Shown here: piece by piece, positions 909 through 55,900 of the stretch | How the letters are laid out: each line of letters begins with the position of its first letter | How positions within the stretch are numbered: position 1 is the first letter of the stretch | Assembly: GCF_036417845.1 (NCBI RefSeq) | Contig: NC_090015.1 | Span: forward strand, 1 to 64,000 | Length of the DNA stretch: 64,000 nucleotides | Source: Apteryx mantelli | Lineage: Eukaryota | Direction: 5' to 3' | Translations under genes and position numbers: made by a program | Notes under the pieces: model-generated | Database searches by the model: none | Told to the model about the DNA's origin: nothing | The model's input: only the letters and a program-made list of their open reading frames with translations

Positions 909-1131
909 GCTGGTGCTGGGCCCCGTGCGCATGGTGACGGTGCCGGCGCGTCACTACTGCGTCGTCCTGAACCCGGTGGCGCGCGGTGGCAACGACGGTG
1001 ACGGTGACGACGACGGTGACGGTGACGTGCTGCTGGACGGCGCGGGGCAGGCGCGCCTGCGGCACGGCGACCTCGAGGTGCGCCTGGCCCGCGAGCCCTT
1101 CGCCCTCTACCCCGGCGAGCGCCTCCAGCAG
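909..1131 (+). CDS. MVP: MVP internal coding exon ([75 protein letters not shown]); acceptor AG 907-908, donor GT 1132-1133; 3' phase 0
   Basis: Translation aligns to vertebrate MVP '[27 protein letters not shown]...[29 protein letters not shown]'. An in-frame TGA at 898-900 means the exon cannot start further upstream. A clean GT donor follows, and the next exon continues the MVP alignment. The frame matches ORF 913..1200. Confidence 0.85.
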
Positions 1132-5662: not shown

Positions 5663-5786
5663 GACGTGACGCCGCTGCAGGTGGTGCTGGCCGACACGGC
5701 GCTGCGTCTCCGCGCCCTGCTCGACTTCGTGGCCCGGGACGGCAGCCGCTTCGTGGCCGGTGATGAGTGGCTCTTCGAAGGTCCCG
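5663..5786 (+). CDS. MVP: MVP coding exon ([42 protein letters not shown]); AG 5661-5662, donor GT 5787-5788; 3' phase 1
   Basis: Near-identical to MVP '[22 protein letters not shown]...[12 protein letters not shown]'. The frame continues from the previous exon. Donor is gtacgc. Confidence 0.9.
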
Positions 5787-5872: not shown

Positions 5873-6004
5873 GCACCTACATCCCCCGCAAGGAGGTGGA
5901 GGTGGCCGAGACGCTGCAGGCCACCGTCATCGGGCCCAACCAGGCCGTGCGGCTGCGGGCGCGCAAGGAGTGCGTCGACCGCGAGGGCGTCCGCCGCGTC
6001 ACAG
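5873..6004 (+). CDS. MVP: MVP coding exon ([45 protein letters not shown]); AG 5871-5872, donor GT 6005-6006; phase 1 at both ends
   Basis: Matches MVP '[44 protein letters not shown]'. A split Gly codon joins it to the previous exon across a short 86-bp intron. Confidence 0.9.
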
Positions 6005-7990
6005 GTGACCCCCCCTGGCACCCATGGGTGCTCCTGGGACCCTCCTGCACCCTTGGGAGCTCCTGGGACCCCCCAGCACCTGTGGGTGCTCCTGGGACCC
6101 TCCTGCACCCTTGGGAGCTCCTGGGACCCACCAACACCCATGGGAGCTCCTGGGAGCTTCTGGGACCCCTGGGACCCCCCAGCACCCATGGGAGCTCCTG
6201 GGATCCTCCTGCACCTGTGGGTGCTCCTGGGACCCCCCAGCACCCATGGGAGCTCCTGGGACCCTCCTGCACCCATGGGAGCTCCTGGGACCCTCCTGCA
6301 CCCATGGGAGCTCCTGGGAGCTTCTGGGACCCCTGGGACCCCCCAGCACCCATGGGAGCTCCTGGGATCCTCCTGCACCTGTGGGTGCTCCTGGGACCCC
6401 CCAGCACCCATGGGAGCTCCTGGGACCCTCCTGCACCCATGGGAGCTCCTGGGAGCTTCTGGGACCCCTGGGACCCCCCAGCACCCATGGGAGCTCCTGG
6501 GACCCTCCTGCACCTGTGGGTGCTCCTGGGAGCCTCCTGCACCCTTGGGAGCTCCTGGGACCCCCCTGCACCCTTGGAAGCCCCCCAGCACCCATGGGAG
6601 CTCCTGGGAGTTCTTGGGACCCCTGGGACCCTCCTGCACCCTTGGGAGCTCCTGGGACCCTCCTGCACCCATGGGAGCTCCTGGGAGCTTCTGGGACCCC
6701 TGGGACCCCCCAGCACCCATGGGAGCTCCTGGGATCCTCCTGCACCCGTGGGAGCTCCTGGGAGCTCTTGGGACCCCTGGGACCCCCCTGCACCCATGGG
6801 AGCTCTTGGGACCCCTGAGACCCCCCTGCACCCGTGGGTGCTCCTGGGATCCTCCTGCACCCCTGGGAGCTCCTGGGAGCTCTTGGGACCCCTGGGACCC
6901 TCCCTGCACCCATGGGAGCTCCTGGGATCCTCCTGCACCCATGGGAGCTCCTGGGAGCTCCTGGGACCCCTGGGACCCCCCTGCACCCATGGGAGCTCCT
7001 GGCACCCCCCAGCACCCATGGGAGCTCCTGGGATCCTCCTGCACCCTTGGGAGCTCCTGGGAGCTCTTGGGACCCCTGGGACCCTCCCTGCACCCATGGG
7101 AGCTCTTGGGACCCTCCTGCACCCTTGGGAGCTCCTGGGAGCTCTTGGGACCCCTGGGACCCCCCAGCACCCATGGGAGCTCCTGGGACCCTCCTGCACC
7201 CCTGGGAGCTCCTGGGAGCTCTTGAGACCCCTGGGACCCCCCAGCACCCATGGGAGCTCCTGGGACCCCCCTGCACCCATGGGAGCTCCTGGGACCCTCC
7301 TGCACCCCTGGGAGCTCTTGGGAGCTCTTGGGACTCCTGGGACCCTCCCTGCACCCATGGGAGCTCCTGGGATCCTCCTGTACCTTTGGGAGCTCCTGGG
7401 AGCTCTTGAGACCCCTGGGACCCCCCAGCACCCATGGGAGCTCCTGGGACCCCCCTGCACCCATGGGAGCTCCTAGGAGCTCTTGGGACCCCTGGGATCC
7501 TCCCTGCACCCTTGGGAGCTCCTGGGAGCTCCTGGGACCCCTGGGACCCTCCCTGCACCCATGGGAGCTCCTGGGATCCTCCTGCACCCTTGGGAGCTCC
7601 TGGGAGCTCTTGGGACCCCTGGGACCCTCCCTGCACCCATGGGAGCTCTTGGGACCCTCCTGCACCCTTGGGAGCTCCTGGGAGCTCTTGGGACCCCTGG
7701 GACCCCCCAGCACCCATGGGAGCTCCTGGGATCCTCCTGCACCCATGGGAGCTCCTGGGACCCCCCTGTGCCCATGGGACCCCCCCAGCACCCATGGGAG
7801 CCCCCATGGGACCCCCTGCACCTGTGGAAGCCCCCAGCACCCATGGGTGCTCCTGGGAGCCCGCTGCACCCCTGGGAGCTCCTGGGACCCCCCTGCACCC
7901 CTGGGAGGCCCCCAGCACCCCTGGGAGCCCCTGGGATCCCCCCCGCACCCTTGGGATCCCACGGCCCCCCCTAGCACCCCTGGGACCCTC
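6005..7990. repeat. Tandem repeat of about 30-60-bp units (ctcctgggaccctcctgcacccatgggagctcctgggagcttctgggacccctgggaccccccagcacccatgggag), starting at the exon-3 donor
   Basis: Direct reading. Confidence 0.9.
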
Positions 7991-9190
7991 ATCCTTGGCC
8001 CAGCACCCTTGGGACCCCACGACCTCTCTAGGACCCCCTTGTCCCACCCCCAGCACCCTTGGGACCCCCCAGCACCCCCCCAGCACCCCCTTGTCCCACC
8101 CCGCAGCACCCCTAGGCCCCCCTTGTCCCACCCCCAGCACCCTTGGGACCCCCCAGCACCCTTGGGACCCCCTTGTCCCACCCCACAGCACCCTTGGGAC
8201 CCCCCAGCACCCTTGGGACCCCCTTGTCCCACCCCCAGCACCCTTGGGACCCCCCAGCACCCTTGGGACCTCCTTGTCCCACCCACAGCACCCTTGGGAC
8301 CCCCCAGCACCCCTAGGCCCCCCTTGTCCCCCCCCCAGCACCCTTGGGACCCCCCAGCACCCCTAGGCCCCCCTTGTCCCACCCCCAGCACCCTTGGGAC
8401 CCCCCAGCACCCTTGGGACCCCCTTGTCCCACCCCACAGCACCCTTGGGACCCCCCAGCACCCTTGGGACCCCCTTGTCCCACCCCAGCACCCTTGGGAC
8501 CCCCCAGCACCCCTAGGCCCCCCTTGTCCCCCCCCCAGCACCCTTGGGACCCCCCAGCACCCTTGGGACCCCCTTGTCCCACCCCACAGCACCCTTGGGA
8601 CCCCCCAGCACCCTTGGGACCCCCTTGTCCCACCCCCAGCACCCTTGGGACCCCCCAGCACCCTTGGGACCCCCTTGTCCCACCCCCAGCACCCTTGGGA
8701 CCCTCCAGCACCCTTGGGACCCCCTTGTCCCACCCCAGCACCCTTGGGACCCCCCAGCACCCCTAGGCCCCCCTTGTCCCCCCCCCAGCACCCTTGGGAC
8801 CCCCCAGCACCCTTGGGACCCCCTTGTCCCACCCCCAGCACCCTTGGGACCCTCCAGCACCCTTGGGACCCCCTTGTCCCACCCCAGCACCCTTGGGACC
8901 CCCCAGCACCCCTAGGCCCCCCTTGTCCCCCCCCCAGCACCCTTGGGACCCCCCAGCACCCTTGGGACCCCCTTGTCCCACCCCACAGCACCCTTGGGAC
9001 CCCCCAGCACCCTTGGGACCCCCTTGTCCCCCCCCCAGCACCCTTGGAACCCTCAACACCTGTAGGAACCTCCAACACCCATAAGACCCCCAGGCTCCCA
9101 CCACCCACAGGACCCCCCCCAGCACCCACAACACCCCCCCAGCACCCTTGGGACCCCCCCCAGCACCCTTGGGACCCCCCCACCCAGCAC
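7990..9190. repeat. Tandem repeat of about 55-60-bp units (ccccagcacccttgggaccccccagcacccttgggacccccttgtcccac), with about 200-250-bp higher-order periodicity
   Basis: ORFs 8344..8766, 8544..8915 and 8794..9084 encode nearly the same peptide. Confidence 0.9.
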
Positions 9191-9203: not shown

Positions 9204-9298
9204 GCGAGGAGTGGCTGGTGAAGCGGGTGGGCGCCTACCTGCCCGGCGTCTACGAGGAGGTCCTCGACGTGGTGGACGCCATCGTCCTCACCGAGAAG
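9204..9298 (+). CDS. MVP: MVP coding exon ([31 protein letters not shown]); AG 9202-9203, donor GT 9299-9300
   Basis: Matches MVP '[31 protein letters not shown]'. The phase is consistent with the neighbouring exons. Confidence 0.9.
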
Positions 9299-9398: not shown

Positions 9399-9635
9399 AA
9401 AGCCCTGCACCTTCGGGCGACGAGGACCTTCCGGGACGCCCAGGGCACGGTGCGACGCACGGGCGAGGAGTGGCTGGTGACGCAGGAGCAGAGCGACGCC
9501 TACGTCCCCGACGTCTTCGAGGAGGTGGTGGCCCAGGTGGCCGTCACCACCCTGGGGCCCCGCCAGTACTGCGTCGTCCTCGACCCCGTGGGGCCCGACG
9601 GCAAGCCCCAGCTGGGCCAGCAGCGCGTCGTCAAG
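9399..9635 (+). CDS. MVP: MVP coding exon ([79 protein letters not shown]); AG 9397-9398, donor GT 9636-9637
   Basis: Matches MVP '[28 protein letters not shown]...[30 protein letters not shown]'. It is separated from the previous exon by a 100-bp repeat-free intron. Confidence 0.9.
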
Positions 9636-12489: not shown

Positions 12490-12615
12490 GGCGAGAAGTC
12501 CTTCTTCCTGCGGCCGGGCGAGCGTCTCCAGGCCGGCATCCAGGACGTCTACGTGCTGGCCGAGGACGAGGGGCTGCTGCTCCAGGCCCTGCAGACCCTC
12601 ACCCACCCCGACGAG
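12490..12615 (+). CDS. MVP: MVP coding exon ([42 protein letters not shown]); AG 12488-12489, donor GT 12616-12617
   Basis: Matches MVP '[41 protein letters not shown]'. Confidence 0.88.
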
Positions 12616-14865: not shown

Positions 14866-15024
14866 GGCGGCGCGGAGGTGACGCGGCGGGCGGGCGAGCG
14901 CTGGCTGGCCCGCGGTCCCCTCGAGTACGTGCCGCCGGCCGAGGTGACCGTGCTGGAGCGACGCCGCGCCGTGGCCCTGGGCGAGGGCGAGGGCATCTAC
15001 GTGCGCGACATCCGCACCGGCAAG
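14866..15024 (+). CDS. MVP: MVP coding exon ([53 protein letters not shown]); AG 14864-14865, donor GT 15025-15026
   Basis: Matches MVP '...[47 protein letters not shown]'. Confidence 0.88.
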
Positions 15025-19303: not shown

Positions 19304-19569
19304 GTGCGGGCGGTGGTGGGCCAGACCTACATGCTGACGGCGACGGAGGAGCTGTGGGAGAAGGAGCTGGCGCCCGGCGTGGAGGCGCTGCTGGCGGCCG
19401 CCCGCGACCCCCGGGGCCAGCGCGGGGCCACCGCCGGGGACATCGGGGACGTCGGGGACGACGCCGGGGACACGGCGGGGCGGCGGCGCGACCGCACGCG
19501 GGCCGTCACCTTCCGCGTGCCCCACAACGCCGCCATGCAGCTCTACGACTACCGGGAGCGGCGGGCGCG
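19304..19569 (+). CDS. MVP: MVP coding exon ([88 protein letters not shown]+cg); AG 19302-19303, donor GT 19570-19571 (gtgagc); 3' phase 2
   Basis: Matches MVP '[30 protein letters not shown]...[25 protein letters not shown]'. It contains an in-frame GGGGAC(A/G)TC repeat (GDIGDVGDD) related to the downstream intronic satellite. Confidence 0.85.
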
Positions 19570-20949: not shown

Positions 20950-21080
20950 TGGGGACGCCGTTGGGGACACGGGGGACGCGGCGGGGCGGCGGCGCGACCG
21001 CACGCGGGCCGTCACCTTCCGCGTGCCCCACAACGCCGCCATGCAGCTCTACGACTACCGGGAGCGGCGGGCGCGGTGAG
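20950..21080 (+). other. Copy of the exon-8 3' end plus donor (…[35 protein letters not shown]|gtgagcgggg), inside the intron-8 satellite
   Basis: About 125 nt identical to 19445-19575, including the gtgagc donor, but lacking the 5' two-thirds of the exon. Confidence 0.85.
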
Positions 21081-23444: not shown

Positions 23445-23575
23445 GGGACGCCGTTGGGGACACGGGGGACGCGGCGGGGCGGCGGCGCAACCGCACGCGG
23501 GCCGTCACCTTCCGCGTGCCCCACAACGCCGCCATGCAGCTCTACGACTACCGGGAGCGGCAGGCGCGGTGAGCG
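23445..23575 (+). other. Second copy of the exon-8 3' end plus donor, carrying two substitutions (D>N and R>Q)
   Basis: Same 125-nt block with cgcaaccgc and cggcaggcgcgg variants. The donor gtgagc lies at 23569. Confidence 0.85.
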
Positions 23576-27300: not shown

Positions 27301-28160
27301 GGGTGCGTGTGACCTGCGTGTGGGCCCGTGTGACCCCCGTGGGCGCGTGTAACACACGTGTGGGTGCGTGTGGGTGCGTGTGACCCATGTGTGGGTGCGT
27401 GTGACCGGCGCGTGGGTGCGTGTGGGTGCGTGTGACGTGGGTGTGGGTGCGTGTGGGTGCATGTGACATGCATGTGGGTGCGCGTGACCCCCGTGGGGTG
27501 ACCCCCGTGTCCCCCCCACCCACGCAAGGTGGTGCTGGGCCCCGAGCTGGCGCTGCTGGCGCCCGGCGAGCAGCCCACGGCGCCGTCCCTCTCCGGGGTG
27601 GGACGCGTGTGACCCCCGTGGGGACCCGCGTGGGTGCGTGTGACCCCCGTGGGGTGACCCCCGTGTCCCCCCCACCCACGCAGGGTGGTGCTGGGCCCCG
27701 AGCTGGCGCTGCTGGCGCCCGGCGAGCAGCCCACGGTGCTGTCCCTCTCCGGGGGGGGACGCGTGTGACCCCCGCGTGGGTGCGTGTGGGTGCGTGTGAC
27801 CCCCGTGGGGATGCGTGTGACCCCCGTGGGGTGACCCCCGTGTCCCCCGTGTCCCCACGCAGGGTGGTGCTGGGCCCCGAGCTGGCGCTGCTGGCGCCCG
27901 GCGAGCAGCCCACGGCGCCGTCCCTCTCCGGGGTGGGACACGTGTGACCCCCGTGGGGACCCGCGTGGGTGCGTGTGACCCCCGTGGGGTGACCCCCGTG
28001 TCCCCCGTGTCCCCACGCAGGGTGGTGCTGGGCCCCGAGCTGGCGCTGCTGGCGCCCGGCGAGCAGCCCACGGCGCCGTCCCTCTCCGGGGGGGGACGCG
28101 TGTGACCCCCGCGTGGGTGCGTGTGACCCCCGTGGGGTGACCCCCGTGTCCCCCGTGTCC
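24400..28160. repeat. GT-rich repeat of 9-30-bp units (gtgtgggtgcgtgtgacccacgtgtgggtgcgtgtgac), carrying the exon-9 junction copies near its 3' end
   Basis: Direct reading. The alternating purine-pyrimidine GT/GC character is evident. Confidence 0.9.
26530..28100 (+). other. Five truncated copies of the exon-9 acceptor plus its 5' 80 nt, starting at 26556, 27529, 27684, 27863 and 28021; they lie upstream of the real exon at 28169
   Basis: The string ccccacgcag|ggtggtgctgggccccgagctggcgctgctggcgcccggcgagcagcccacgg(c/t)gc(c/t)gtccctctccgggg recurs, with each copy diverging after ctctccgggg. The second copy has caag in place of cag. Confidence 0.85.
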
Positions 28161-28168
28161 CCACGCAG

Positions 28169-28366
28169 GGTGGTGCTGGGCCCCGAGCTGGCGCTGCTGG
28201 CGCCCGGCGAGCAGCCCACGGTGCTGTCCCTCTCCGGGGGACGCCCCAAGCGTCCCCACGCCCGCCGCGCCCTCTGCCTGCTGCTGGGCCCCGACTTCTG
28301 CGCCGACCTCGTGGCCATCGAGACCGCCGACCACGCCCGCCTCCAGCTCCAGCTCGCCTACAACTG
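28169..28366 (+). CDS. MVP: MVP coding exon ([68 protein letters not shown]); AG 28167-28168, donor GT 28367-28368; phase 2 at both ends
   Basis: Almost identical to MVP '[66 protein letters not shown]'. It is the last and only complete copy in a series of five upstream truncated copies. Confidence 0.88.
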
Positions 28367-29700: not shown

Positions 29701-29839
29701 GCACTTCGAGGTGCCGGAGGCGCCGGAGGAGCTGGGCCGCCTCTTCAGCGTCCCCGACTTCGTGGGTGACGCCTGCAAGGCCCTGGCGTCCCGCGTGCGC
29801 GGCGCCGTCGCCGCCGTCTCCTTCGACGACTTCCACAAG
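29701..29839 (+). CDS. MVP: MVP coding exon ([47 protein letters not shown]); AG 29699-29700, donor GT 29840-29841
   Basis: Matches MVP '[48 protein letters not shown]'. The Trp codon is split with the previous exon. Confidence 0.88.
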
Positions 29840-33252: not shown

Positions 33253-33465
33253 AACTCCCAACCGGGTGATCTGCTCGGCCGTGTTCGGCTTCGACGAGGG
33301 CGGCCGCCTGCGCGAGCGCCTCCGCTTCGCCCCCAACGGCCTGGTGGTCACCAGCGTGGACATCCAGAGCGTGGAGCCCGTGGACCAGCGGACGCGCGAC
33401 GCCCTGCAGCGCAGCGTCCAGCTCGCCATCGAGATCGCCACCAACTCCCAGGAGGCCACCGCCAG
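33253..33465 (+). CDS. MVP: MVP coding exon ([70 protein letters not shown]-ag); AG 33251-33252, donor GT 33466-33467. Apparent +1 frameshift in a C-run near 33257-33259
   Basis: Matches MVP 'NSARIIRMAVFGFE...[47 protein letters not shown]'. The nine upstream truncated copies read aactccaaccgg in frame, whereas this copy reads aactcccaaccgg. Confidence 0.7.
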
Positions 33466-36236: not shown

Positions 36237-36353
36237 GCAGGAAGCAGAGCGCCTGGCGCAGGAGGCCCGGGGTCGCCTCGAGCGGCAGCGGCTGCTCGAC
36301 CAGGCCGAGGCCGAACGGGCGCGTCGGGCCCTGCTCGAGCTCGAGGCCCTCAG
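36237..36353 (+). CDS. MVP: MVP coding exon (g-[38 protein letters not shown]-ag); AG 36235-36236, donor GT 36354-36355 (gtgagc)
   Basis: Matches MVP '[39 protein letters not shown]'. Confidence 0.88.
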
Positions 36354-38612: not shown

Positions 38613-38802
38613 GAGGCGGAGCTGGCGCGGCTGGAGCGCGCGCAGGCGCAGGAGCTGCGGGTGCGGCGGGCGCGGGCGGAGGCGGAGGCGGCGCACGCGC
38701 AGGCCATGGCCGAGGTGGAGGGGGGGGCGCGTGCGCGACGTGGCCGCCGCCCTCGGCCCTGACGTCATCCGCGACATCGCGCGCGCCGGGCCCGAGCTCC
38801 AG
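38613..38802 (+). CDS. MVP: MVP coding exon (EAELARLERAQAQELRVRRARAEAEAAHAQAMAEVEGG[fs]RVRDVAAALGPDVIRDIARAGPELQ); AG 38611-38612, donor GT 38803-38804. Apparent +1 frameshift in the G7 run at 38721-38727
   Basis: Matches MVP '[63 protein letters not shown]'. The upstream frame (phase from 38613) and the downstream frame (from 38731) differ by one nucleotide across a 7-G run. Confidence 0.7.
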
Positions 38803-39428: not shown

Positions 39429-39566
39429 GTGAAGCTGCTGCAGGGCCTGGGGCTGCAGTCGACGCTCATCACCGACGGCGCCGCCCCCCTCAACCTCTTC
39501 GCCACCGCCCGGGGGCTCCTGGGGCTGGCCCCGCCCCCCGACCCCGCCCCCGGACACGCCCCCTGA
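39429..39566 (+). CDS. MVP: MVP terminal coding exon ([45 protein letters not shown]); AG 39427-39428; stop TGA 39564-39566
   Basis: Matches MVP C-terminus '[43 protein letters not shown]'. The frame matches ORF 39381..39566. Confidence 0.9.
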
Positions 39567-40312: not shown

Positions 40313-40399
40313 TCCCCGGAGCCCCCCGGGGGGGCTGCTACTGTCCCGGGGGCACCCAAGGGTGCTCCTGGGGGGGGGGAGGGGCGTCACCGCCACCTG

Positions 40400-43989: not shown

Positions 43990-46900
43990 AAAAATGACGT
44001 CAGGGGACCCAGGCGTCCGGGAGGGACCCAGGCGTCCGGGCAGGGACCCGGGTGTCCAGGGGACCCGGGTGTTTGGTGGCCTCGTGGCCACCATCTCCCC
44101 TGGTTTCACTCTACATCTGGGTCATCTTCAAGGGACCCAGGCGTCCGGGGAGACTCGTGTCACCTCTAGAGGGACCAGGCGTCCGGGAGGGGCCCAGGCG
44201 TCCGGGGAGTCTCGCGTCACCTCTAGGGGGACCCGGGCGTCCGGGAGGGGCCCAGGCGTCCGGGGAGTCTCGCGTCACCTCTAGGGGGACCCGGGCGTCC
44301 GGGAGGGGCCCAGGCGTCCGGGGAGCCTCGCGTCACCTCTAGGGGACCCGGGCGTCCGGGAGGGGCCCAGGCGTCCGGGGAGTCTCGCGTCACCTCTAGG
44401 GGGACCCGGGCGTCCGGGAGGGGCCCAGGCGTCCGGGGAGTCTCGCGTCACCTCCAGGGGGACCCGGGCGTCCGGGAGGGGCCCAGGCGTCCGGGGAGCC
44501 TCGCATCACCTCTAGGGGGACCCGGGCGTCCGGGAGGGGCCCAGGCGTCCGGGGAGTCTCGCGTCACCTCTAGAGGGACCCGGGCGTCCGGGAGGGGCCC
44601 AGGCGTCCGGGGAGTCTCGCGTCACCTCTAGAGGGACCCGGGCGTCCGGGAGGGGCCCAGGCGTCCGGGGAGTCTCGCGTCACCTCTAGGGGCACCCGGG
44701 CGTCCGGGAGGGGCCCAGGCGTCCGGGGAGTCTCGCGTCACCTCTAGGGGGACCCGGGCGTCCGGGAGGGGCCCAGGCGTCCGGGGAGTCTCGCGTCGCC
44801 TCTAGGGGGACCCGGGCGTCCGGGAGGGGCCCAGGCGTCCGGGGAGTCTCGCGTCACCTCTAGGGGGACCCGGGCGTCCGGGAGGGGCCCAGGCGTCCGG
44901 GGAGTCTCGCGTCACCTCTAGGGGGACCCGGGCGTCCGGGAGGGGCCCAGGCGTCCGGGGAGTCTCGCGTCACCTCTAGGGGGACCCGGGCGTGCTGGAG
45001 GGGCCCAGGCGTCCGGGGAGTCTCGCGTCGCCTCTAGGGGGACCCGGGCGTCCGGGAGGGGCCCAGGCGTCCGGGGAGTCTCGCGTCGCCTCTAGGGGGA
45101 CCCGGGCGTCCGGGAGGGGCCCAGGCGTCCGGGGAGCCTCGCGTCACCTCTAGGGGGACCCGGGCGTCCGGGAGGGGCCCAGGCGTCCGGGGAGCCTCGT
45201 GTCACCTCTAGGGGGGCCCGGGCGTCCGGGAGGGGCCCAGGCGTCCGGGGAGTCTCGCGTCACCTCTAGGGGGACCCGGGCGTCCGGGAGGGGCCCAGGC
45301 GTCCGGGGAGTCTCCTGTCACCTCTAGGGGCACCCGGGCGTCCGGGAGGGGCCCAGGCGTCCGGGGAGTCTCGCGTCACCTCTAGGGGACCCGGGCGTGC
45401 GGGAGGGGCCCAGGCGTCCGGGGAGTCTCGCGTCACCTCTAGGGGGACCCGGGCGTCCGGGAGGGGCCCAGGCGTCCGGGGAGCCTCGCGTCACCTCTAG
45501 GGGGACCCGGGCGTCCGGGAGGGGCCCAGGCGTCCGGGGAGTCTCGCGTCACCTCTAGAGGGACCCGGGCGTCCGGGAGGGGCCCAGGCGTCCGGGGAGC
45601 CTCGCGTCACCTCTAGAGGGACCCGGGCGTCCGGGAGGGGCCCAGGCGTCCGGGGAGTCTCGCGTCACCTCTAGGGGGACCCGGGCGTCCGGGAGGGGCC
45701 CAGGCGTCCGGGGAGTCTCGCGTCACCTCTAGGGGGACCCGGGCGTCCGGGAGGGGCCCAGGCGTCCGGGGAGTCTCGCGTCGCCTCTAGGGGGACCCGG
45801 GCGTCCGGGAGGGGCCCAGGCGTCCGGGGAGTCTCGCGTCACCTCTAGGGGGACCCGGGCGTCCGGGAGGGGCCCAGGCGTCCGGGGAGTCTCGCGTCAC
45901 CTCTAGGAGACCCGGGCGTCCGGGAGGGGCCCAGGCGTCCGGGGAGTCTCGCGTCACCTCTAGGGGGACCCGGGCGTCCGGGAGGGGCCCAGGCGTCCGA
46001 GGAGTCTGGCGTCACCTCTAGGGGGACCCGGGCGTCCGGGAGGGGCCCAGGCGTCCGGGGAGTCTCGCGTCACCTCTAGGGGGACCCGGGCGTCCGGGAG
46101 GGGCCCAGGCGTCCGGGGAGTCTCGCGTCACCTCTAGGGGGACCCGGGCGTCCGGGAGGGGCCCAGGCGTCCGGGGAGTCTCGCGTCACCTCTAGGGGGA
46201 CCCGGGCGTCCGGGAGGGGCCCAGGCGTCCGGGGAGTCTCGCGTCACCTCTAGAGGGACCCAGGTGTCCGGGAGGGGCCCAGGCGTCCGGGGAGTCTCGC
46301 GTCGCCTCTAGGGGGACCCGGGCGTCCGGGAGGGGCCCAGGCGTCCGGGGAGTCTCGCGTCACCTCTAGGGGGACCCGGGCGTCCGGGAGGGGCCCAGGC
46401 GTCCGAGGAGTCTGGCGTCACCTCTAGGGGGACCCGGGCGTCCGGGAGGGGCCCAGGCGTCCGGGGAGTCTCGCGTCACCTCTAGGGGGACCCGGGCGTC
46501 CGGGAGGGGCCCAGGCGTCCGGGGAGTCTCGCGTCACCTCTAGGAGACCCGGGCGTCCGGGAGGGGCCCAGGCGTCCGGGGAGTCTCGCGTCACCTCTAG
46601 AGGGACCCAGGCGTGCGGGAGGGGCCCAGGCGTCCGGGGAGTCTCGCGTCACCTCTAGAGGGACCCAGGCGTGCGGGAGGGGCCCAGGCGTCCGGGGAGT
46701 CTCGCGTCACCTCTAGGGGGACCCGGGCGTCCGGGAGGGGCCCAGGCGTCCGGGGAGTCTCGCGTCACCTCTAGGGGGACCCAGGTGTCCGAGAGGGGCC
46801 CAGGCGTCCGGGGAGTCTCGCGTCACCTTTACGGGGACCCAGGAGTCCGGGAGGGGCCCAGGCGTCCGGGGAGTCTCGCGTCGCCTCTAGGGGGACCCGG

Positions 46901-49900
46901 GTGTCCGGGAGGGGCCCAGGCGTCCGGGGAGGGGCCCAGGCGTCCGGGGAGTCTCGCGTCACCTCTAGGGGGACCCGGGCGTCCGGGAGGGGCCCAGGCG
47001 TCCGGGGAGTCTCGCGTCACCTCTAGGGGACCCGGGCGTCCGGGAGGGGCCCAGGCGTCTGGGGAGCCTCGTGTCACCTCTAGAGGGGCCCAGGCGTCCG
47101 GGGAGTCTGGCGTCACCTCTAGGGGGACCCGGGCGTCCGGGAGGGGCCCAGGCGTCTGGGGAGCCTCGTGTCACCTCTAGAGGGGCCCAGGCGTCCGGGG
47201 AGTCTGGCGTCACCTCTAGGGGGACCCGGGCGTCCGGGAGGGGCCCAGGCGTCTGGGGAGCCTCGTGTCACCTCTAGAGGGGCCCAGGCGTCCGGGGAGT
47301 CTGGCGTCACCTCTAGGGGGACCCGGGCGTCCGGGAGGGGCCCAGGCGTCCGGGGGGTCTCGCGTCACCTCTAGAGGGGCCCAGGCGTCCGGGGAGTCTG
47401 GCGTCACCTCTAGGGGGACCCGGGCGTCCGGGAGGGGCCCAGGCGTCTGGGGAGCCTCGTGTCACCTCTAGAGGGGCCCAGGCGTCCGGGGAGTCTCGCG
47501 TCACCTCTAGAGGGACCCGGGCGTCCGGGAGGGGCCCAGGCGTCCGGGGAGCCTCGCGTCACCTCTAGGGGGACCCGGGCGTGCGGGAGGGGCCCAGGCG
47601 TCCGGGGAGTCTCGTGTCACCTCTAGGGGGACCCAAGTGTCCGGGAGGGGCCCAGGCGTCCGGGGAGTCTCGCGTCACCTCTAGGGGGACCCGGGCGTGC
47701 GGGAGGGGCCCAGGCGTCCGGGGAGTCTCGCGTCACCTCTAGGGGGACCCGGGCGTGCGGGAGGGGCCCAGGCGTCCGGGGAGTCTCGTGTCACCTCTAG
47801 GGGGACCCGGGCGTCCGGGAGGGGCCCAGGCGTCCGGGGAGTCTCGCGTCACCTCTAGAGGGACCCGGGCGTCCGGGAGGGGCCCAGGCGTCCGGGGAGT
47901 CTCGTGTCACCTCTAGGGGGACCCGGGCGTCCGGGAGGGGCCCAGGCGTCCGGGGAGTCTCGCGTCACCTCTAGGGGGACCCGGGCGTCCGGGAGGGGCC
48001 CAGGCGTCCGGGGAGCCTCGCGTCACCTCTAGGGGGACCCGGGCGTCCGGGAGGGGCCCAGGCGTCCGGGGAGTCTCGCGTCACCTCTAGGGGGACCCGG
48101 GCGTCCGGGAGGGGCCCAGGCGTCCGGGGAGTCTCGCGTCACCTCTGGGGGGACCCGGGCGTCCGGGAGGGGCCCAGGCGTCCGGGGAGTCTCGCGTCAC
48201 CTCTAGAGGGGCCCAGGCGTCCGGGGAGTCTCGCGTCACCTCTGGGGGGACCCGGGCGTCCGGGAGGGGCCCAGGCGTCCGGGGAGTCTCGCGTCACCTC
48301 TAGGGGGACCCGGGCGTCCGGGAGGGGCCCAGGCGTCCGGGGAGCCTCGCGTCACCTCTAGGGGGACCCGGGCGTCCGGGAGGGGCCCAGGCGTCCGGGG
48401 AGTCTCGCGTCACCTCTAGGGGGACCCAGGCGTCCGGGAGGGGCCCAGGCGTCCGGGGAGTCTCGCGTCACCTCTAGGGGGACCCGGGCGTCCGGGAGGG
48501 GCCCAGGCGTCCGGGGAGTCTCGCGTCACCTCTAGGGGGACCCGGGCGTCCGGGAGGGGCCCAGGCGTCAGGGGAGTCTGGCGTCACCTCTAGGGGGACC
48601 CGGGCGTCCGCGAGGGGCCCAGGCGTCCGGGGAGCCTCGCGTCACCTCTAGGGGGACCCGGGCGTCCGGGAGGGGCCCAGGCGTCCGGGGAGTCTCGCGT
48701 CACCTCTAGGGGGACCCGGGCGTCCGGGAGGGGCCCAGGCGTCCGGGGAGTCTCGCGTCGCCTCTACGGGGACCCGGGCGTCCGGGAGGGGCCCAGGCGT
48801 CCGGGGAGTCTCGCGTCACCTCTAGAGGGACCCGGGCGTCCGGGAGGGGCCCAGGCGTCCGGGGAGTCTCGCGTCACCTCTAGGGGGACCCGGGCGTCCG
48901 GGAGGGGCCCAGGCGTCCGGGGAGCCTCGCGTCACCTCTAGGGGGACCCGGGCGTCCGGGAGGGGCCCAGGCGTCCGGGGAGTCTCGCGTCACCTCTAGG
49001 GGGACCCGGGCGTCCGGGAGGGGCCCAGGCGTCCGGGGAGTCTCGCGTCACCTCTAGGGGGACCCGGGCGTCCGGGAGGGGCCCAGGCGTCCGGGGAGCC
49101 TCGCGTCGCCTCTAGGGGGACCCGGGCGTCCGGGAGGGGCCCAGGCGTCCGGGGAGTCTCGCGTCACCTCTAGAGGGACCCGGGCGTCCGCGAGGGGCCC
49201 AGGCGTCCGGGGAGTCTCGCGTCGCCTCTAGGGGACCCGGGCGTCCGGGAGGGGCCCAGGCGTCCGGGGAGCCTCGCGTCACCTCTAGGGGGACCCGGGC
49301 GTCCGGGAGGGGCCCAGGCGTCCGGGGAGTCTCGCGTCACCTCTAGGGGGACCCGGGCGTCCGGGAGGGGCCCAGGCGTCCGGGGAGTCTCGCGTCACCT
49401 CTAGGGGGGCCCAGGCGTCCGGGGAGTCTCGCGTCACCTCTAGGGGGACCCGGGCGTCCGGGAGGGGCCCAGGCGTCCGGGGAGTCTCGCGTCACCTCTA
49501 GGGGGGCCCAGGCGTCCGGGGAGTCTCGCGTCACCTCTAGGGGGACCCGGGCGTCCGGGAGGGGCCCAGGCGTCCGGGGAGTCTCGCGTCACCTCTAGGG
49601 GGACCCAGGTTTCCGGGAGGGGCCCAGGCGTCCGGGGAGTCTCGCGTCACCTCTAGGGGGACCCGGGCGTCCGGGAGGGGCCCAGGCGTCCGGGGCATCT
49701 CGCGTCACCTCTAGGGGGACCCGGGCGTGCGGGAGGGGCCCAGGCGTCCGGGGAGTCTCGCGTCACCTCTAGGGGGACCCGGGCGTCCGGGAGGGGCCCA
49801 GGCGTCCGGGGAGTCTCGCGTCACCTCTAGGGGACCCGGGCGTCCGGGAGGGGCCCAGGCGTCCGGGGAGCCTCGCGTCACCTCTAGGGGGGCCCGGGCG

Positions 49901-52900
49901 TCCGGGAGGGGCCCAGGCGTCCGGGGAGTCTCGCGTCACCTCTAGGGGGACCCGGGCGTCCGGGAGGGGCCCAGGCGTCCGGGGAGTCTCGCGTCACCTC
50001 TAGGGGGACCCGGGCGTCCGGGAGGGGCCCAGGCGTCCGGGGAGTCTCGCGTCACCTCTGGGGGGACCCGGGCGTGCGGGAGGGGCCCAGGCGTCCGGGG
50101 AGTCTCGCGTCACCTCTAGGGGGACCCGGGCGTCCGGGAGGGGCCCAGGCGTCCGGGGAGTCTCGCGTCACCTCTAGGGGGACCCGGGCGTCCGAGGGGG
50201 GCCCAGGCGTCCGGGGAGTCTCGCGTCACCTCTAGGGGGACCCGGGCGTCCGGGAGGGGCCCAGGCGTCCGGGGAGCCTCGCGTCACCTCTAGGGGGACC
50301 CGGGCGTCCGGGAGGGGCCCAGGCGTCCGGGGAGTCTCGCGTCACCTCTAGGGGGACCCGGGCGTCCGGGAGGGGCCCAGGCGTCCGGGGAGCCTCGCGT
50401 CACCTCTAGGGGGACCCGGGCGTCCGGGAGGGGCCCAGGCGTCCGGGGAGTCTCGCGTCACCTCTAGGGGGACCCGGGCGTCCGGGAGGGGCCCAGGCGT
50501 CCGGGGAGCCTCGCGTCACCTCTAGAGGGGCCAGGCGTCCGCGGAGTCTCGCGTCACCTCTAGGGGACCCAGGTGTCCGGGGAGTCTCGTGTCATCTCTA
50601 GGGGACCCAGGTGTCCGGGGAGTCTCGTGTCACCTCTAGGGGGACCCGGGCGTCCGGGAGGGGCCCAGGCGTCCGCGGAGTCTCGCGTCACCTCTAGGGG
50701 ACCCAGGTGTCCGGGGAGTCTCGTGTCATCTCTAGGGGACCCAGGTGTCCGGGGAGTCTCGCGTCACCTCTAGGGGGACCCGGGCGTCCGGGAGGGGCCC
50801 AGGCGTCCGGGGAGTCTCGCGTCATCTCTAGGGGACCCAGGTGTCCGGGGAGTCTCGTGTCACCTCTAGGGGGACCCGGGCGTCCGGGAGGGGCCCAGGC
50901 GTCCGGGGAGTCTCGCGTCACCTCTAGAGGGACCAGGTGTCCGTGAGGGGCCCAGGTGTCCGGGAGGGGCCCAGGCGTCCGGGGAGCCTCGCGTCACCTC
51001 TAGGGGGACCCGGGCGTCCGGGAGGGGCCCAGGCGTCCGGGGAGTCTCGCGTCACCTCTAGAGGGACCCGGGCGTCCGGGAGGGGCCCAGGCGTCCGGGG
51101 AGTCTCGCGTCACCTCTAGGGGGACCCGGGCGTCCGGGAGGGGCCCAGGCGTCCGGGGAGTCTCGCGTCACCTCTAGGGGGACCCGGGCGTCCGGGAGGG
51201 GCCCAGGCGTCCGGGGAGTCTGGCGTCACCTCTACGGGGACCCGGGCGTCCGGGAGGGGCCCAGGCGTCCGGGGAGTCTCGCGTCACCTCTAGAGGGACC
51301 CGGGCGTCCGGGAGGGGCCCAGGCGTCCGGGGAGTCTCGCGTCACCTCTAGGGGGACCCGGGCGTCCGCGAGGGGCCCAGGCGTCCGGGGAGCCTCGCGT
51401 CACCTCTAGGGGGACCCGGGCGTCCGGGAGGGGCCCAGGCGTCCGGGGAGTCTCGCGTCACCTCTAGGGGGACCCGGGCGTCCGGGAGGGGCCCAGGCGT
51501 CCGGGGAGTCTCGCGTCACCTCTAGGGGGACCCGGGCGTCCGGGAGGGGCCCAGGCGTCCGGGGAGTCTCGCGTCACCTCTAGGGGGACCCGGGCGTCCG
51601 GGAGGGGCCCAGGCGTCCGGGGAGTCTCGCGTCACCTCTAGGGGGACCCGGGCGTCCGGGAGGGGCCCAGGCGTCCGGGGAGCCTCGCGTCACCTCTAGG
51701 GGGGCCCGGGTGTCCGGGAGGGGCCCAGGCGTCCGGGGAGCCTCGCGTCACCTCTGAGGGGACCCGGGCGTGCGGGAGGGGCCCAGGCGTCCGGGGAGCC
51801 TCGCGTCACCTCTAGGGGGACCCGGGCGTCTGGGAGGGGCCCAGGCGTCCGGGGAGTCTCGCGTCACCTCTAGGGGGACCCGGGCGTCCGGGAGGGGCCC
51901 AGGCGTCCGGGGAGTCTCGCGTCACCTCTAGGGGGACCCGGGCGTCCGGGAGGGGCCCAGGCGTCCGGGGAGTCTCGCGTCACCTCTAGGGGGACCCGGG
52001 CGTCCGGGAGGGGCCCAGGCGTCCGGGGAGTCTTGCGTCACCTCTAGGGGGACCCGGGCGTCCGGGAGGGGCCCAGGCGTCCGGGGAGCCTCGCGTCGCC
52101 TCTAGGGGGACCCGGGCGTCCGGGAGGGGCCCAGGCGTCCGGGGAGCCTCGCGTCACCTCTAGGGGCACCCGGGCGTCCGGGAGGGGCCCAGGCGTCCGG
52201 GGAGTCTCGCGTCACCTCTAGAGGGACCCGGGCGTCCGCGAGGGGCCCAGGCGTCCGGGGAGTCTCGCGTCGCCTCTAGGGGACCCGGGCGTCCGGGAGG
52301 GGCCCAGGCGTCCGGGGAGTCTCGCGTCACCTCTAGGGGGACCCGGGCGTCCGGGAGGGGCCCAGGCGTCCGGGGAGTCTCGCGTCACCTCTAGGGGGGC
52401 CCAGGCGTCCGGGGAGTCTCGCGTCACCTCTAGGGGGACCCGGGCGTCCGGGAGGGGCCCAGGCGTCCGGGGAGTCTCCTGTCACCTCTAGGGGGACCCG
52501 GGCGTCCGGGAGGGGCCCAGGCGTCCGGGGAGTCTCGCGTCACCTCTAGGGGGACCCGGGCGTCCGGGAGGGGCCCAGGCGTCCGGGGAGTCTCGCGTCA
52601 CCTCTAGGGGGACCCGGGCGTCTGGGAGGGGCCCAGGCGTCCGGGGAGTCTCGCGTCACCTCTAGGGGGCCCAGGCGTCCGGGAGGGGCCCAGGCGTCCG
52701 GGGAGTCTCGCGTCACCTCTAGGGGGACCCGGGCGTCCGGGAGGGGCCCAGGCGTCCGGGGAGTCTCGCGTCACCTCTAGGGGGACCCGGGCGTCCGGGA
52801 GGGGCCCAGGCGTCCGGGGAGTCTCGCGTCACCTCTAGAGGGACCCGGGCGTCCGGGAGGGGCCCAGGCGTCCGGGCAGTCTCGCGTCACCTCTAGGGGG

Positions 52901-55900
52901 ACCCGGGCGTCCGGGAGGGGCCCAGGCGTCCGGGGAGTCTCGCGTCGCCTCTAGGGGGACCCGGGCGTCCGGGAGGGGCCCAGGCGTCCGGGGAGTCTCG
53001 CGTCACCTCTAAGGGGACCCGGGCGTCCGCGAGGGGCCCAGGTGTCCGGGGAGTCTCGCGTCACCTCTGGGGGGACCCGGGCGTCCGGGAGGGGCCCAGG
53101 CGTCCGGGGAGTCTCGCGTCACCTCTAGGGGGACCCGGGCGTCCGGGAGGGGCCCAGGCGTCCGGGGAGTCTCGCGTCACCTCTAGGGGGACCCGGGCGT
53201 CCGGGAGGGGCCCAGGCGTCCGGGGAGTCTCGCGTCACCTCTAGGGGGGCCCAGGCGTCCGGGGAGTCTCGCGTCACCTCTAGGGGGACCCGGGCGTCCG
53301 GGAGGGGCCCAGGCGTCCGGGGAGTCTCCTGTCACCTCTAGGGGGACCCAGGTTTCCGGGAGGGGCCCAGGCGTCCGGGGAGTCTCGCGTCACCTCTAGG
53401 GGGACCCGGGCGTCCGGGAGGGGCCCAGGCGTCCGGGGCATCTCGCGTCACCTCTAGGGGGACCCGGGCGTGCGGGAGGGGCCCAGGCGTCCGGGGAGTC
53501 TCGCGTCACCTCTAGGGGACCCGGGCGTCCGGGAGGGGCCCAGGCGTCCGGGGAGTCTCGCGTCACCTCTAGGGGGACCCGGGCGTGCGGGAGGGGCCCA
53601 GGCGTCCGGGGAGTCTCGCGTCACCTCTAGGGGGCCCAGGCGTCCGGGAGGGGCCCAGGCGTCCGGGGAGTCTCGCGTCACCTCTAGGGGGACCCGGGCG
53701 TCCGGGAGGGGCCCAGGCGTCCGGGGAGTCTCGCGTCACCTCTAGGGGGACCCGGGCGTCCGGGAGGGGCCCAGGCGTCCGGGGAGTCTCGCGTCACCTC
53801 TAGGGGACCCGGGCGTCCGGGAGGGGCCCAGGCGTCCGGGGAGTCTCGCGTCACCTCTAGGGGGACCCGGGCGTCCGGGAGGGGCCCAGGCGTCCGGGGA
53901 GTCTCGCGTCACCTCTAGGGGGGCCCGGGCGTCCGGGAGGGGCCCAGGCGTCCGGGGAGTCTCGCGTCACCTCTAGGGGACCCGGGCGTCTGGGAGGGGC
54001 CCAGGTGTCCGGGGAGGGGCCCAGGCGTCCGGGGAGTCTCGCGTCACCTCTAGGGGACCCGGGCGTCCGGGAGGGGCCCAGGCGTCCGGGGAGCCTCGCG
54101 TCACCTCTAGGGGGACCCGGGCGTCCGGGAGGGGCCCAGGCGTCCGGGGAGTCTCGCGTCACCTCTAGGGGGACCCGGGCGTCCGGGAGGGGCCCAGGCG
54201 TCCGGGGAGTCTCGCGTCACCTCTAGGGGGACCCGGGCGTCCGGGAGGGGCCCAGGCGTCCGGGGAGTCTCGCGTCACCTCTAGGGGGACCCGGGCGTCC
54301 GGGAGGGGCCCAGGCGTCCGGGGAGTCTCGCGTCACCTCTAGGGGGACCCGGGCGTCCGGGAGGGGCCCAGGCGTCCGGGGAGTCTCGCGTCACCTCCGG
54401 GGGGACCCGGGCGTGCGGGAGGGGCCCAGGCGTCCGGGGAGTCTCGCGTCACCTCTAGGGAGACCCGGGCGTCCGGGAGGGGCCCAGGCGTCCGGGGAGT
54501 CTCGCGTCACCTCTAGGGGGACCCGGGCGTCCGGGAGGGGCCCCAGGCGTCCGGGGAGTCTCGCGTCACCTCTGGGGGGACCCGGGCGTCCGGGAGGGGC
54601 CCAGGCGTCCGGGGAGTCTCGCGTCACCTCTAGGGGGACCCGGGCGTCCGGGAGGGGCCCAGGCGTCCGGGGAGTCTCGCGTCACCTCTAGGGGGACCCG
54701 GGCGTCCGGGAGGGGCCCAGGCGTCCGGGGAGTCTCGCGTCACCTCTAGGGGGACCCGGGCGTCCGGGAGGGGCCCAGGCGTCCGGGGAGCCTCGCGTCA
54801 CCTCTAGGGGACCCGGGCGTCCGGGAGGGGCCCAGGCGTCCGGGGAGTCTGGCGTCACCTCTAGGGGGACCCGGGCGTCCGGGAGGGGCCCAGGCGTCCG
54901 GGGAGTCTCGCGTCACCTCTAGGGGGACCCGGGCGTGCGGGAGGGGCCCAGGCGTCCGGGGAGTCTCGCGTCACCTCTAGGGGGACCCGGGCGTCCGGGA
55001 GGGGCCCAGGCGTCCGGGGAGTCTCGCGTCACCTCTAGGGGGACCCGGGCGTCCGCGAGGGGCCCAGGCGTCCGGGGAGTCTCGCGTCACCTCTAGGGGA
55101 CCCGGGCGTCCGGGAGGGGCCCAGGCGTCCGGGGAGTCTGGCGTCACCTCTAGGGGGACCCGGGCGTCCGGGAGGGGCCCAGGCGTCCGGGGAGTCTCGC
55201 GTCACCTCTAGGGGGACCCGGGCGTCCGGGAGGGGCCCAGGCGTCCGGGGAGTCTCGCGTCACCTCTAGGGGGACCTAGGAGTCCGGGAGGGGCCCAGGC
55301 GTCCGGGGAGTCTCCTGTCACCTCTAGGGGGACCCGGGCGTCCGGGAGGGGCCCAGGCGTCCGGGCAGTCTCGCGTCACCTCTAGGGGGACCCGGGCGTC
55401 CGGGAGGGGCCCAGGCGTCCGGGGAGCCTCGCGTCACCTCTAGGGGGACCCGGGCGTGCGGGAGGGGCCCAGGCGTCCGGGGAGCCTCGCGTCACCTCTA
55501 GAGGGACCCGGGCGTCCGGGAGGGGCCCAGGCGTCCGGGGAGCCTCGCGTCACCTCTAGGGGACCCGGGCGTGCGGGAGGGGCCCAGGCGTCCGGGGAGT
55601 CTCGCGTCACCTCTAGGGGGACCCGGGCGTCCGGGAGGGGCCCAGGCGTCCGGGAGGGGCCCAGGCGTCCGGGGAGCCTCGCGGTCACCTCTAGGGGGAC
55701 CCGGGCGTCCGGGAGGGGCCCAGGCGTCCGGGGAGCCTCGCGTCACCTCTAGGGGGACCCGGGCGTCCGGGAGGGGCCCAGGCGTCCGGGGAGTCTCGCG
55801 TCACCTCTAGGGGGACCCGGGCGTCCGGGAGGGGCCCAGGCGTCCGGGGAGTCTCGCGTCACCTCTAGGGGGACCCGGGCGTCCGGGAGGGGCCCAGGCG

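Follow-up and report, generated by a model that had tools for sequence, protein, structure and literature searches.

A probable lineage-specific 27-nt tandem-duplication insert in a coding exon of a palaeognath MVP gene

Exon 3 of the MVP gene contained in the window (by which we mean the whole 64-kb stretch of DNA analyzed here) carries a short Asp- and Gly-rich tandem repeat, and the encoded protein has nine residues more than its orthologues at this point. This is probably a genuine, lineage-specific, in-frame insert of 27 nt that arose by tandem duplication in an intact palaeognath MVP gene, and that is tolerated (neutral or nearly neutral) rather than adaptive. The insert is known from one assembly of one individual.

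Results

Architecture of the repeat

The original prediction was of a (GGTGAC)n hexanucleotide expansion lying in frame within an MVP coding exon. The string it quoted is present exactly, on the plus strand at 991–1026 (aacgacggtgacggtgacgacgacggtgacggtgac), where it takes the form AACGAC(GGTGAC)2 GACGAC(GGTGAC)2 and is read as the codons AAC GAC GGT GAC GGT GAC followed by GAC GAC GGT GAC GGT GAC. It is not, however, a simple hexanucleotide run. There are two 18-nt units, each with two copies of GGTGAC, differing in a single A/G position (AAC vs. GAC). Tandem Repeats Finder (TRF) reports both periodicities: period 6 at 994–1027 (5.7 copies, 85% matches, score 54) and period 18 at 984–1027 (2.4 copies, 92% matches, score 74). 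The better description is of two imperfect 18-nt units – a two-level arrangement of 6 + 18 nt – with no pure (GGTGAC)n run. The repeat and the sequences related to it are:

991–1008, plus strand: tandem repeat, unit 1, AACGACGGTGACGGTGAC, encoding NDGDGD
1009–1026, plus strand: tandem repeat, unit 2, GACGACGGTGACGGTGAC, encoding DDGDGD
994–1020, plus strand: insertion without counterpart in orthologues, 27 nt encoding DGDGDDDGD, from protein and codon alignments
933–944, plus strand: one-mismatch copy of the repeat dimer, GGTGACGGTGCC, coding for the conserved MVTVP motif and present also in emu, ostrich and rhea

The position of the gap inside the repeat is arbitrary: MAFFT places it at 994–1020 and HMMER after the Arg that aligns to rat Arg67. 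Across the 64 kb the 12-mer GGTGACGGTGAC has exact matches only at 997 and 1015; outside the MVP exon (909–1131) there is one unrelated site with one mismatch, at 40386. Within the exon, GGTGACGGTG occurs at 933–942, 55 nt upstream of the repeat and inside the conserved MVTVP codons, a copy that the relatives share. The repeat is the top TRF match of the spliced coding sequence, and a score of at least 74 was obtained in 6 of 300 codon shuffles: by statistics alone the excess is moderate, and the case is carried mainly by the comparison with orthologues and by codon usage.

The repeat lies in an intact MVP gene

Exons were located by tblastn, the probe being a human MVP sequence used for no other purpose. 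This gave 15 exons on the plus strand between 909 and 39566. The first coding exon (residues 1–41) is upstream of the window, and the N-terminus therefore lies outside the data. The exons are:

909–1131, plus strand: MVP coding exon (exon 3), which holds the repeat; mammalian residues 42–106, the end of R1 plus R2
5663–5786, plus strand: next exon after the repeat exon (DVTPLQVV...EGPG)
5873–6004, plus strand: MVP exon
9204–9298, plus strand: MVP exon
9399–9635, plus strand: MVP exon
12490–12615, plus strand: MVP exon
14866–15024, plus strand: MVP exon
19304–19569, plus strand: MVP exon with a second G/D-rich low-complexity stretch at 19436–19480, in a loop that is disordered in solved vaults
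28169–28366, plus strand: MVP exon, start of the shoulder domain
29701–29839, plus strand: MVP exon
33253–33465, plus strand: MVP exon, its frame broken in the assembly by one extra C at about 33257
36237–36353, plus strand: MVP exon, cap helix
37312–37438, plus strand: MVP exon
38613–38802, plus strand: MVP exon with a G8 run at 38720–38727, one base over frame
39429–39566, plus strand: last coding exon, with the stop codon

The boundaries of the repeat exon are canonical (acceptor cag/G at 908/909, donor CAG/gta at 1131/1132) and the repeat is in frame. Compared by phmmer with PDB sequences, the exon translation matches residues 42–106 of rat, mouse and human MVP (E 7.5e-23 to 3.6e-21), with a gap of nine residues in the mammalian sequences; searched on its own against Pfam it matches Vault_2 (E 1.1e-20). 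These matches and the splice frame bear out the placement of the repeat, with its 12 encoded residues, in frame within an MVP coding exon. Over the whole model all 28 internal splice sites are canonical (every acceptor AG, every donor GT). The GGTGAC units resemble the gene's own GTGAC-type donors, which are found at the exons ending at 6004 and 29839.

Two exons, as written in the assembly, are out of frame by a single base. The extra C near 33257 gives TCCCAAC in the exon vs. TCCAAC in three partial copies of its start that lie upstream. Once the two extra bases are removed the gene encodes a colinear MVP of 826 aa with no in-frame stops, and the protein around both breaks is identical to that of emu. 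All five Pfam domains are recovered in the full product: Vault (4.1e-66), MVP_shoulder (1.4e-48), Vault_2 (4.2e-31), Vault_3 (5.4e-26) and Vault_4 (1.4e-15). With a dN/dS of 0.22 (emu) and 0.20 (ostrich), the gene is under purifying selection; for the exons downstream of the first frame break the ratio is 0.10–0.125. Base-calling errors, or else very recent events, are the simplest account of the two breaks, which show that the base-level accuracy of the assembly is imperfect.

Among vertebrates the insert is confined to the window

A homology search with the 75-aa exon alone returned no protein match, while the full-length reconstructed MVP returned 2637. Since vertebrate MVPs do exist in the database, the empty result reflects the sensitivity limit for a short low-complexity query. 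The closest proteins are those of emu (92% identity over 99% of the query), ostrich (91%) and rhea (89%, partial); identity to neognath MVPs is 77–83%, and to reptile MVPs about 70%. In a neighbor-joining tree the window MVP, a single copy at its locus, groups with the palaeognaths. Synonymous divergence (dS) from emu, ostrich and rhea is 0.155–0.19, compared to 0.11–0.17 among those three: the window thus represents a fourth deep palaeognath lineage, about as far from each of the three as any two of these lie apart. On this measure cassowary is an unlikely source, and a kiwi or a tinamou a possible one.

When 29 orthologues ranging from gar to chimpanzee are aligned by MAFFT, the nine extra residues occur in the window MVP alone. 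The length of the segment running from the Cys of RHYC to the GQ that precedes xxLxH was then compared over the 118 of the best 120 database matches in which it could be measured, a sample comprising three palaeognaths, neognaths, reptiles, amphibians, lungfish, coelacanth and ray-finned fishes. Among these the segment is 19 residues long in 113 and 20 residues long in five, vs. 28 in the window; the insert is absent from 118 of 118. The claim that the repeat occupies a place where other vertebrate MVPs are shorter is thus upheld. The original prediction had also said what would count against it, namely orthologues sharing the DG-rich segment as an ancient conserved feature: none of the 118 has it.

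The same picture holds at the DNA level. In a codon alignment of the window with emu, ostrich, rhea, ptarmigan and a cuckoo, the loop reads CGG GGT CCA ACG GGA GCT GTG in the neognaths, CGG GCG CCC GGC GGG GAG ACG in emu, ostrich and rhea, and CGC GGT GGC AAC [27 nt] GGT GAC GTG in the window. GGTGAC is absent from the loop of emu, ostrich, rhea and the two neognaths in this alignment, and the sequences flanking the 27 nt align perfectly to the orthologues. Because emu, ostrich and rhea are without the insert at the DNA level, it is lineage-specific and not ancient.

Insertions of this size are rare in the protein. Between residues 45 and 815, insertions of at least five residues number six among 121 vertebrate MVPs, and the R2 insert of the window is the only clean case inside a structured repeat domain. 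Three of the five others resemble intron read-through in gene models; there is also a five-residue acidic insert in opossum (Monodelphis), and another consists of the window MVP's own extra residues in the known disordered loop. In a broader set of 111 diverse MVPs, each representing one cluster at 50% identity, 84 have a segment of 18–20 residues and 21 have one of more than 20, some of the latter perhaps being annotation artifacts; elsewhere in eukaryotes, therefore, the site accepts insertions. In many fishes and amphibians the loop is already acidic (e.g., RDDDDDV in gar).

Position in the protein fold

AlphaFold2, given the first 270 residues and 34 aligned orthologues, produced a model with a mean pLDDT of 78. 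Residues 28–36 (NDGDGDDDG) have pLDDT below 50 and lie between a strand at 15–20 (HYCVVL) and paired beta-bridges at 23/25 and 40/42, which places the insert at a beta-hairpin turn. Foldseek matches the model to R1–R7 of mouse MVP (3GNF) with E 3.7e-29 and TM 0.69. Internal repeat homology aligns RHYCVVLNP of the window to RHYCVILDP of R6; read with the structural description of Querol-Audi et al. (2009, PMC2752026), the alignment places the site in the beta2–beta3 loop of R2.

According to that description, beta2–beta3 is the most variable loop among the MVP repeats, and in R2 it is long, reaches over R1 and forms part of the R1–R2 interface. Lateral contacts in the vault wall are made by the beta1–beta2 and beta3–beta4 loops plus the linker (PMC2752026). 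In R3 and R4 the corresponding loop forms an acidic, exposed hairpin; both hairpins were once predicted to be EF hands, but the structures contain neither Ca2+ nor an EF-hand fold (PMC2752026). In the predicted model the insert is at the tip of the beta2–beta3 hairpin loop of repeat domain R2, and the turn would lengthen from about 5–6 to about 14–15 residues. The additional residues would probably form a floppy, solvent-exposed tip, leaving the R2 fold and the wall contacts intact. Nonetheless, nine residues inserted into an R1-contacting loop that is otherwise of fixed length in vertebrates could have structural consequences. The structural literature describes contacts for R1 and for PARP4 on R3–R5; none was found for R2 residues 64–75.

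These results qualify the earlier view that the acidic insert lies in an inter-repeat loop. The insert is acidic and its loop is at the R1–R2 interface, but the loop (beta2–beta3 of R2) is intra-domain: being within R2 and packing on R1, it is not strictly an inter-repeat linker.

Origin by local tandem duplication

If the two units are copies of one another, they should share codon choices that are otherwise uncommon in the gene. All four Gly codons inside the insert are GGT, whereas elsewhere in the gene GGC is used 41 times, GGG 19, GGT six and GGA twice (6 GGT of 68); four GGT codons would be expected with a probability of about 6e-5, if codons are independent. Similarly, GC3 is 0.667 inside the insert vs. 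0.968 outside. The shared GGT codons and the low GC3 mark the units as copies of each other, by slippage or tandem duplication; the codons suggest that the units have not yet been turned into GC-ending ones.

The insert would then have originated by local tandem duplication of a GGTGAC-based unit, through replication slippage or unequal exchange. Starting from a loop of about six residues (G-G-N-G-D-V), a doubling of GGTGAC would have given (GGTGAC)2; one GAC would then have been gained, and the resulting 18-nt block duplicated, with one subsequent A-to-G change. This order of steps is the simplest history of the repeat. The copy of GGTGACGGTGCC/GGTGACGGTG at 933 is, speculatively, a possible seed or template for the repeat.

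Two other routes were considered and set aside. Hairpin-driven slippage is without support: on both strands of 975–1045 the single-stranded DNA folds no better than shuffled sequence (z of -0.04 and +0.90). Nor did an intronic satellite spread into the exon, since none of the intronic arrays is built of GGTGAC and GGTGACGGTGAC is confined to the exon. The lack of relationship between GGTGAC and the intronic array units points instead to an independent small slippage or duplication event.

A repeat-rich locus

The region around MVP is extremely GC-rich and repetitive. Tandem repeats account for 89% of the window, covering 92.5% of intron bases and 6.6% of exon bases; TRF coverage of the MVP loci of the relatives is 83% in emu, 75% in ostrich and 87% in rhea. 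The gene spans more than 38.6 kb in the window, 29–32 kb in emu, ostrich and rhea and 10–14 kb in two neognaths. Some arrays in the window include copies of parts of exons, splice sites among them (the starts of the exons at 5663, 28169 and 33253, and the end of the exon at 19304–19569), and the loci of emu, ostrich and rhea contain 15–25 repeats of the 3' half of exon 3.

Expansions of this kind are known from genes on chicken dot chromosomes as 'sequence stuttering' or 'exon stuttering' (Genome Biol Evol 2026, PMC12954441). There the expansions stay between exons and leave the exon itself unaltered, and such loci differ in length among individual chickens (PMC12954441). MVP is not named in the parts of the text and supplements of that paper that were available. 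The emu gene is on a 3.3-Mb record and the ostrich gene on a 4.8-Mb record, sizes compatible with, but no proof of, a dot chromosome.

It had been claimed that the instability of the locus therefore reaches into coding sequence. The locus-wide part of this stands, with 89% of the window being tandem repeat; the 'therefore' is inferential, the GGTGAC unit being unlike those of the intronic arrays. The same instability may plausibly have intruded into coding sequence. The neutrality of the insert and its link to the instability of the locus are both matters that we infer.

Charge and motifs

The tip has seven Asp in the window, where emu and ostrich have one Glu and rhea has none, a net gain of six acidic residues per chain. 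Given that the vault consists of 78 chains (PMC13347060), this would amount to roughly 470 extra negative charges per particle, located near the waist. A regular-expression search of the whole protein found neither the EF-hand pattern PS00018 of PROSITE nor the RTX nonapeptide GGxGxDxUx. The insert does contain two DxDxDG matches (DGDDDG and DDDGDG); these are expected from the composition of any D/G repeat and thus carry little weight. Moreover, the model is predicted to be all-beta around the insert, which departs from a helix-loop-helix context.

PARP4 binds R3–R5 and NAD+ binds the shoulder (PMC12280208): neither site involves the loop that carries the insert. A search for evidence of function among motifs, fold and literature found none, and nothing specific to bird MVP or to an MVP insert of this kind was found in the literature. 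Removal of the insert by splicing, judged from the sequence, seems unlikely: a GTGAC-type donor used here would put the coding sequence out of frame, and the next AG downstream is too close for a vertebrate intron.

Alternative explanations

An artifact of assembly or sequencing, or an allele that is private to or heterozygous in the sequenced individual, could give the same observation. The gene contains two single-base frame errors (the extra C near 33257 and the G8 at 38720–38727) and the region is of the extremely GC-rich, repetitive type whose loci vary in length among chickens (PMC12954441). However, those errors are 1-nt indels of the homopolymer type, whereas a clean, ordered, in-frame segment of 27 nt is atypical of consensus error; it is also far below read length, and its flanks align perfectly to the orthologues. 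We consider this explanation unlikely. Less likely by some way is a pseudogene in decay, in which the insertion would be one among several lesions free of constraint. The two +1 frameshifts in the assembly as written are what such a gene might show, but the reading is rejected on dN/dS (0.10–0.125 downstream), on splice sites (28 of 28 canonical) and on domain integrity (five Pfam MVP domains intact), and removal of two bases leaves no in-frame stop and a protein identical to that of emu at both breaks. There is next to no chance that the segment is an ancient, DG-rich feature of MVP lost by mammals: no evidence in its favor was found, the nearest thing being an ancestral loop that is often acidic, and orthologue alignments, segment lengths and the codon alignment all refute it, the segment being absent from 118 of 118 vertebrate MVPs (of the best 120 matches).

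A further alternative concerns function. The acidic loop might be a gain kept by selection, as a Ca2+ site or as an electrostatic or partner-binding patch near the waist. The insert is at the same structural position as the acidic hairpins of R3 and R4, it has two DxDxDG matches, the sole substitution between its units (AAC to GAC) adds an Asp, the loop was acidic beforehand in many fishes and amphibians, and no other clean insertion of at least five residues is found in a structured repeat domain among the 121 vertebrate MVPs. Set against this, PS00018 and RTX matches are lacking and DxDxDG is trivial in a D/G repeat; crystal structures have neither an EF hand nor Ca2+ even at R3 and R4; identical GGT codons suggest recent copying and not a long-kept sequence; the closest relatives are without the insert; and the region is predicted to be disordered. 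A functional gain is accordingly judged improbable. An extension of the argument, in which stuttering is not strictly stopped at exon borders and a ring of 78 flexible Asp/Gly tips in the R1–R2 region near the waist could alter cation binding or pH-dependent opening, we regard as a long shot. The lineage-specific, tolerated tandem duplication remains the reading we favor.

Discussion

If the insert is real and fixed, then a hairpin of R2 (beta2–beta3) whose length is conserved in vertebrates accepts an acidic extension of nine residues. This would constitute a natural experiment, and one of use to vault engineering, where insertion-tolerant loops are sought. It would also mean that the extreme intron instability of avian dot chromosomes can now and then mark a coding exon without breaking its frame. 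Otherwise the insert belongs with ordinary low-complexity insertions specific to one lineage, and is most likely something that an extremely repeat-prone locus has produced and the protein tolerates, rather than a new function. The mechanism by which it arose (slippage or duplication) is commonplace.

Comparison with other known systems

As in other coding tandem repeats, the unit length is divisible by three, the copies hardly differ (even at synonymous positions), the repeat is lineage-specific and it falls in a loop with predicted disorder. It differs in being very short (36 nt) and imperfect, in having two periodicities, and in occupying a loop that is otherwise fixed in vertebrates.

Within MVP there are two points of comparison. 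The acidic beta2–beta3 hairpins of R3 and R4, implicated in PTEN binding, have the same topological position in the five-stranded repeat fold, and are likewise acidic, and solvent-exposed as the insert probably is; they are, however, ancient, conserved and ordered, whereas the R2 tip of the window is new, of low complexity and predicted to be disordered. The disordered loop at human residues 429–449 is, like the insert, rich in G and D, and varies in length among palaeognaths (19 residues in the window, GDLGDSGDNHGDAG in emu, GGDAGDGGDGDGGGGG in rhea); in both, low complexity is built from the same GC-rich codon families (GGN, GAC). That loop, in contrast, is unresolved in all solved structures and variable in every lineage, while elsewhere the R2 loop is ordered and of fixed length.

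With EF-hand-type loops the insert shares two DxDxDG matches and a following hydrophobic residue at the equivalent of position 8. It fails PS00018, though, lacks the acidic residue at position 12 and the flanking helices, and belongs to an all-beta domain.

The resemblance to stuttering lies in the setting: introns that are 92.5% tandem repeat, local arrays, and copies of exon edges with splice sites in the adjacent introns. The architecture of the locus is more striking than the insert, yet it is already described in the literature. The DG repeat itself is wholly inside an exon, alters the protein, is tiny and has a unit unrelated to the intronic arrays; being exonic and protein-altering, it is no instance of stuttering as defined, although it is in a stuttering locus. 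We would class it with the ordinary coding tandem repeats, as one that has arisen in such a locus.

Sequence of exon 3 around the insert

The in-frame GGTGAC-based repeat (991-1026) lies within exon 3 of MVP (909-1131), and the residues on either side of it (967-990 and 1027-1029) are those of neognaths, LNPVARG...V, whereas emu, ostrich and rhea have in common LHP(A/V)ARAPGG(E/A) at the same flank. Such neognath-like flanks would be odd if the window lineage nests among emu, ostrich and rhea: incomplete lineage sorting or parallel change may explain them, or they may follow the actual branching order. Exon 3 is also the MVP exon most diverged from emu: its 51 synonymous sites hold 18 synonymous differences, as compared to a gene-wide pS of 0.146. 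This divergence may stem from uncertainty of the alignment beside the gap, or from a locally raised mutation rate.

A second low-complexity, G/D-rich coding stretch is found at 19436-19480 (roughly GGG GAC NNN, period 9), and falls in an MVP loop (human 429-449) that solved vault structures leave unresolved. All four palaeognaths have a G/D-rich loop of variable length here, unlike neognaths and reptiles.

Copies of exon edges in MVP introns

In emu, ostrich and rhea the 3' half of exon 3, together with its donor, is tandemly repeated in the next intron (about 15-25 copies, with a period of ~150-155 bp):

Arrays of the exon 3 3' half in the following intron
6200-8605, emu locus L001
8351-12243, ostrich locus L002
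3243-6152, rhea locus L003

The intron after exon 3 of the window contains no array of the exon 3 3' half, and CCTATAG-type arrays stand in its place. Elsewhere in the window's MVP, intronic arrays carry copies of exon edges of two types: one joins an acceptor to 45-60 nt from the start of the next exon, the other joins the terminal ~85 nt of an exon to its donor gtgagc. These copies are predicted decoy splice sites; in one copy, at 27528, the acceptor has caa in place of cag.

Copies of exon edges in window introns
3110 and 4220 (plus diverged copies near 3615 and 5173), exon-start copies upstream of the true start at 5663
26557, 27528, 27684, 27863 and 28021, exon-start copies upstream of the true start at 28169
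about 32170, 32932 and 33102 (plus two diverged copies), exon-start copies upstream of the true start at 33253
21046-21075 and about 23486-23569, exon-end copies downstream of the exon end at 19569

Apparent frame breaks

At the start of the exon at 33253 the reading frame shows an apparent +1 frameshift (33253-33260): the true exon reads AACTCCCAACCG, whereas its three upstream decoy copies read AACTCCAACCG. The protein obtained after correction is identical to that of emu, ostrich and rhea. A consensus error probably accounts for the frameshift. In the penultimate coding exon the frame is likewise disrupted, here by a run of eight G (38720-38727); seven G would yield AEVEGGRVRDVAAALGPDVIRD, the same as in emu.

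Tandem repeat load and gene size

Tandem repeats (Tandem Repeats Finder (TRF), score of 50 or more) make up 89% of the whole window (1-64000), and within MVP they cover 92.5% of intron bases vs. 6.6% of exon bases. Downstream (3') of the gene an array of 58-bp units (GGGGCCCAGGCGTCCGGGGAGTCTCGCGTCACCTCTAGGGGGACCCGGGCGTCCGGGA), with a GC content of about 0.77 and constant GC skew, extends over more than 19 kb (44131-64000) and is truncated by the window's end. In the loci fetched from the relatives, TRF coverage totals 83% in emu, 75% in ostrich and 87% in rhea. The MVP gene spans more than 38.6 kb in the window, 29-32 kb in emu, ostrich and rhea, and 10-14 kb in two neognaths. The repeat load of the window's MVP locus is in keeping with the "sequence stuttering" described in the literature for avian dot chromosomes (PMC12954441).
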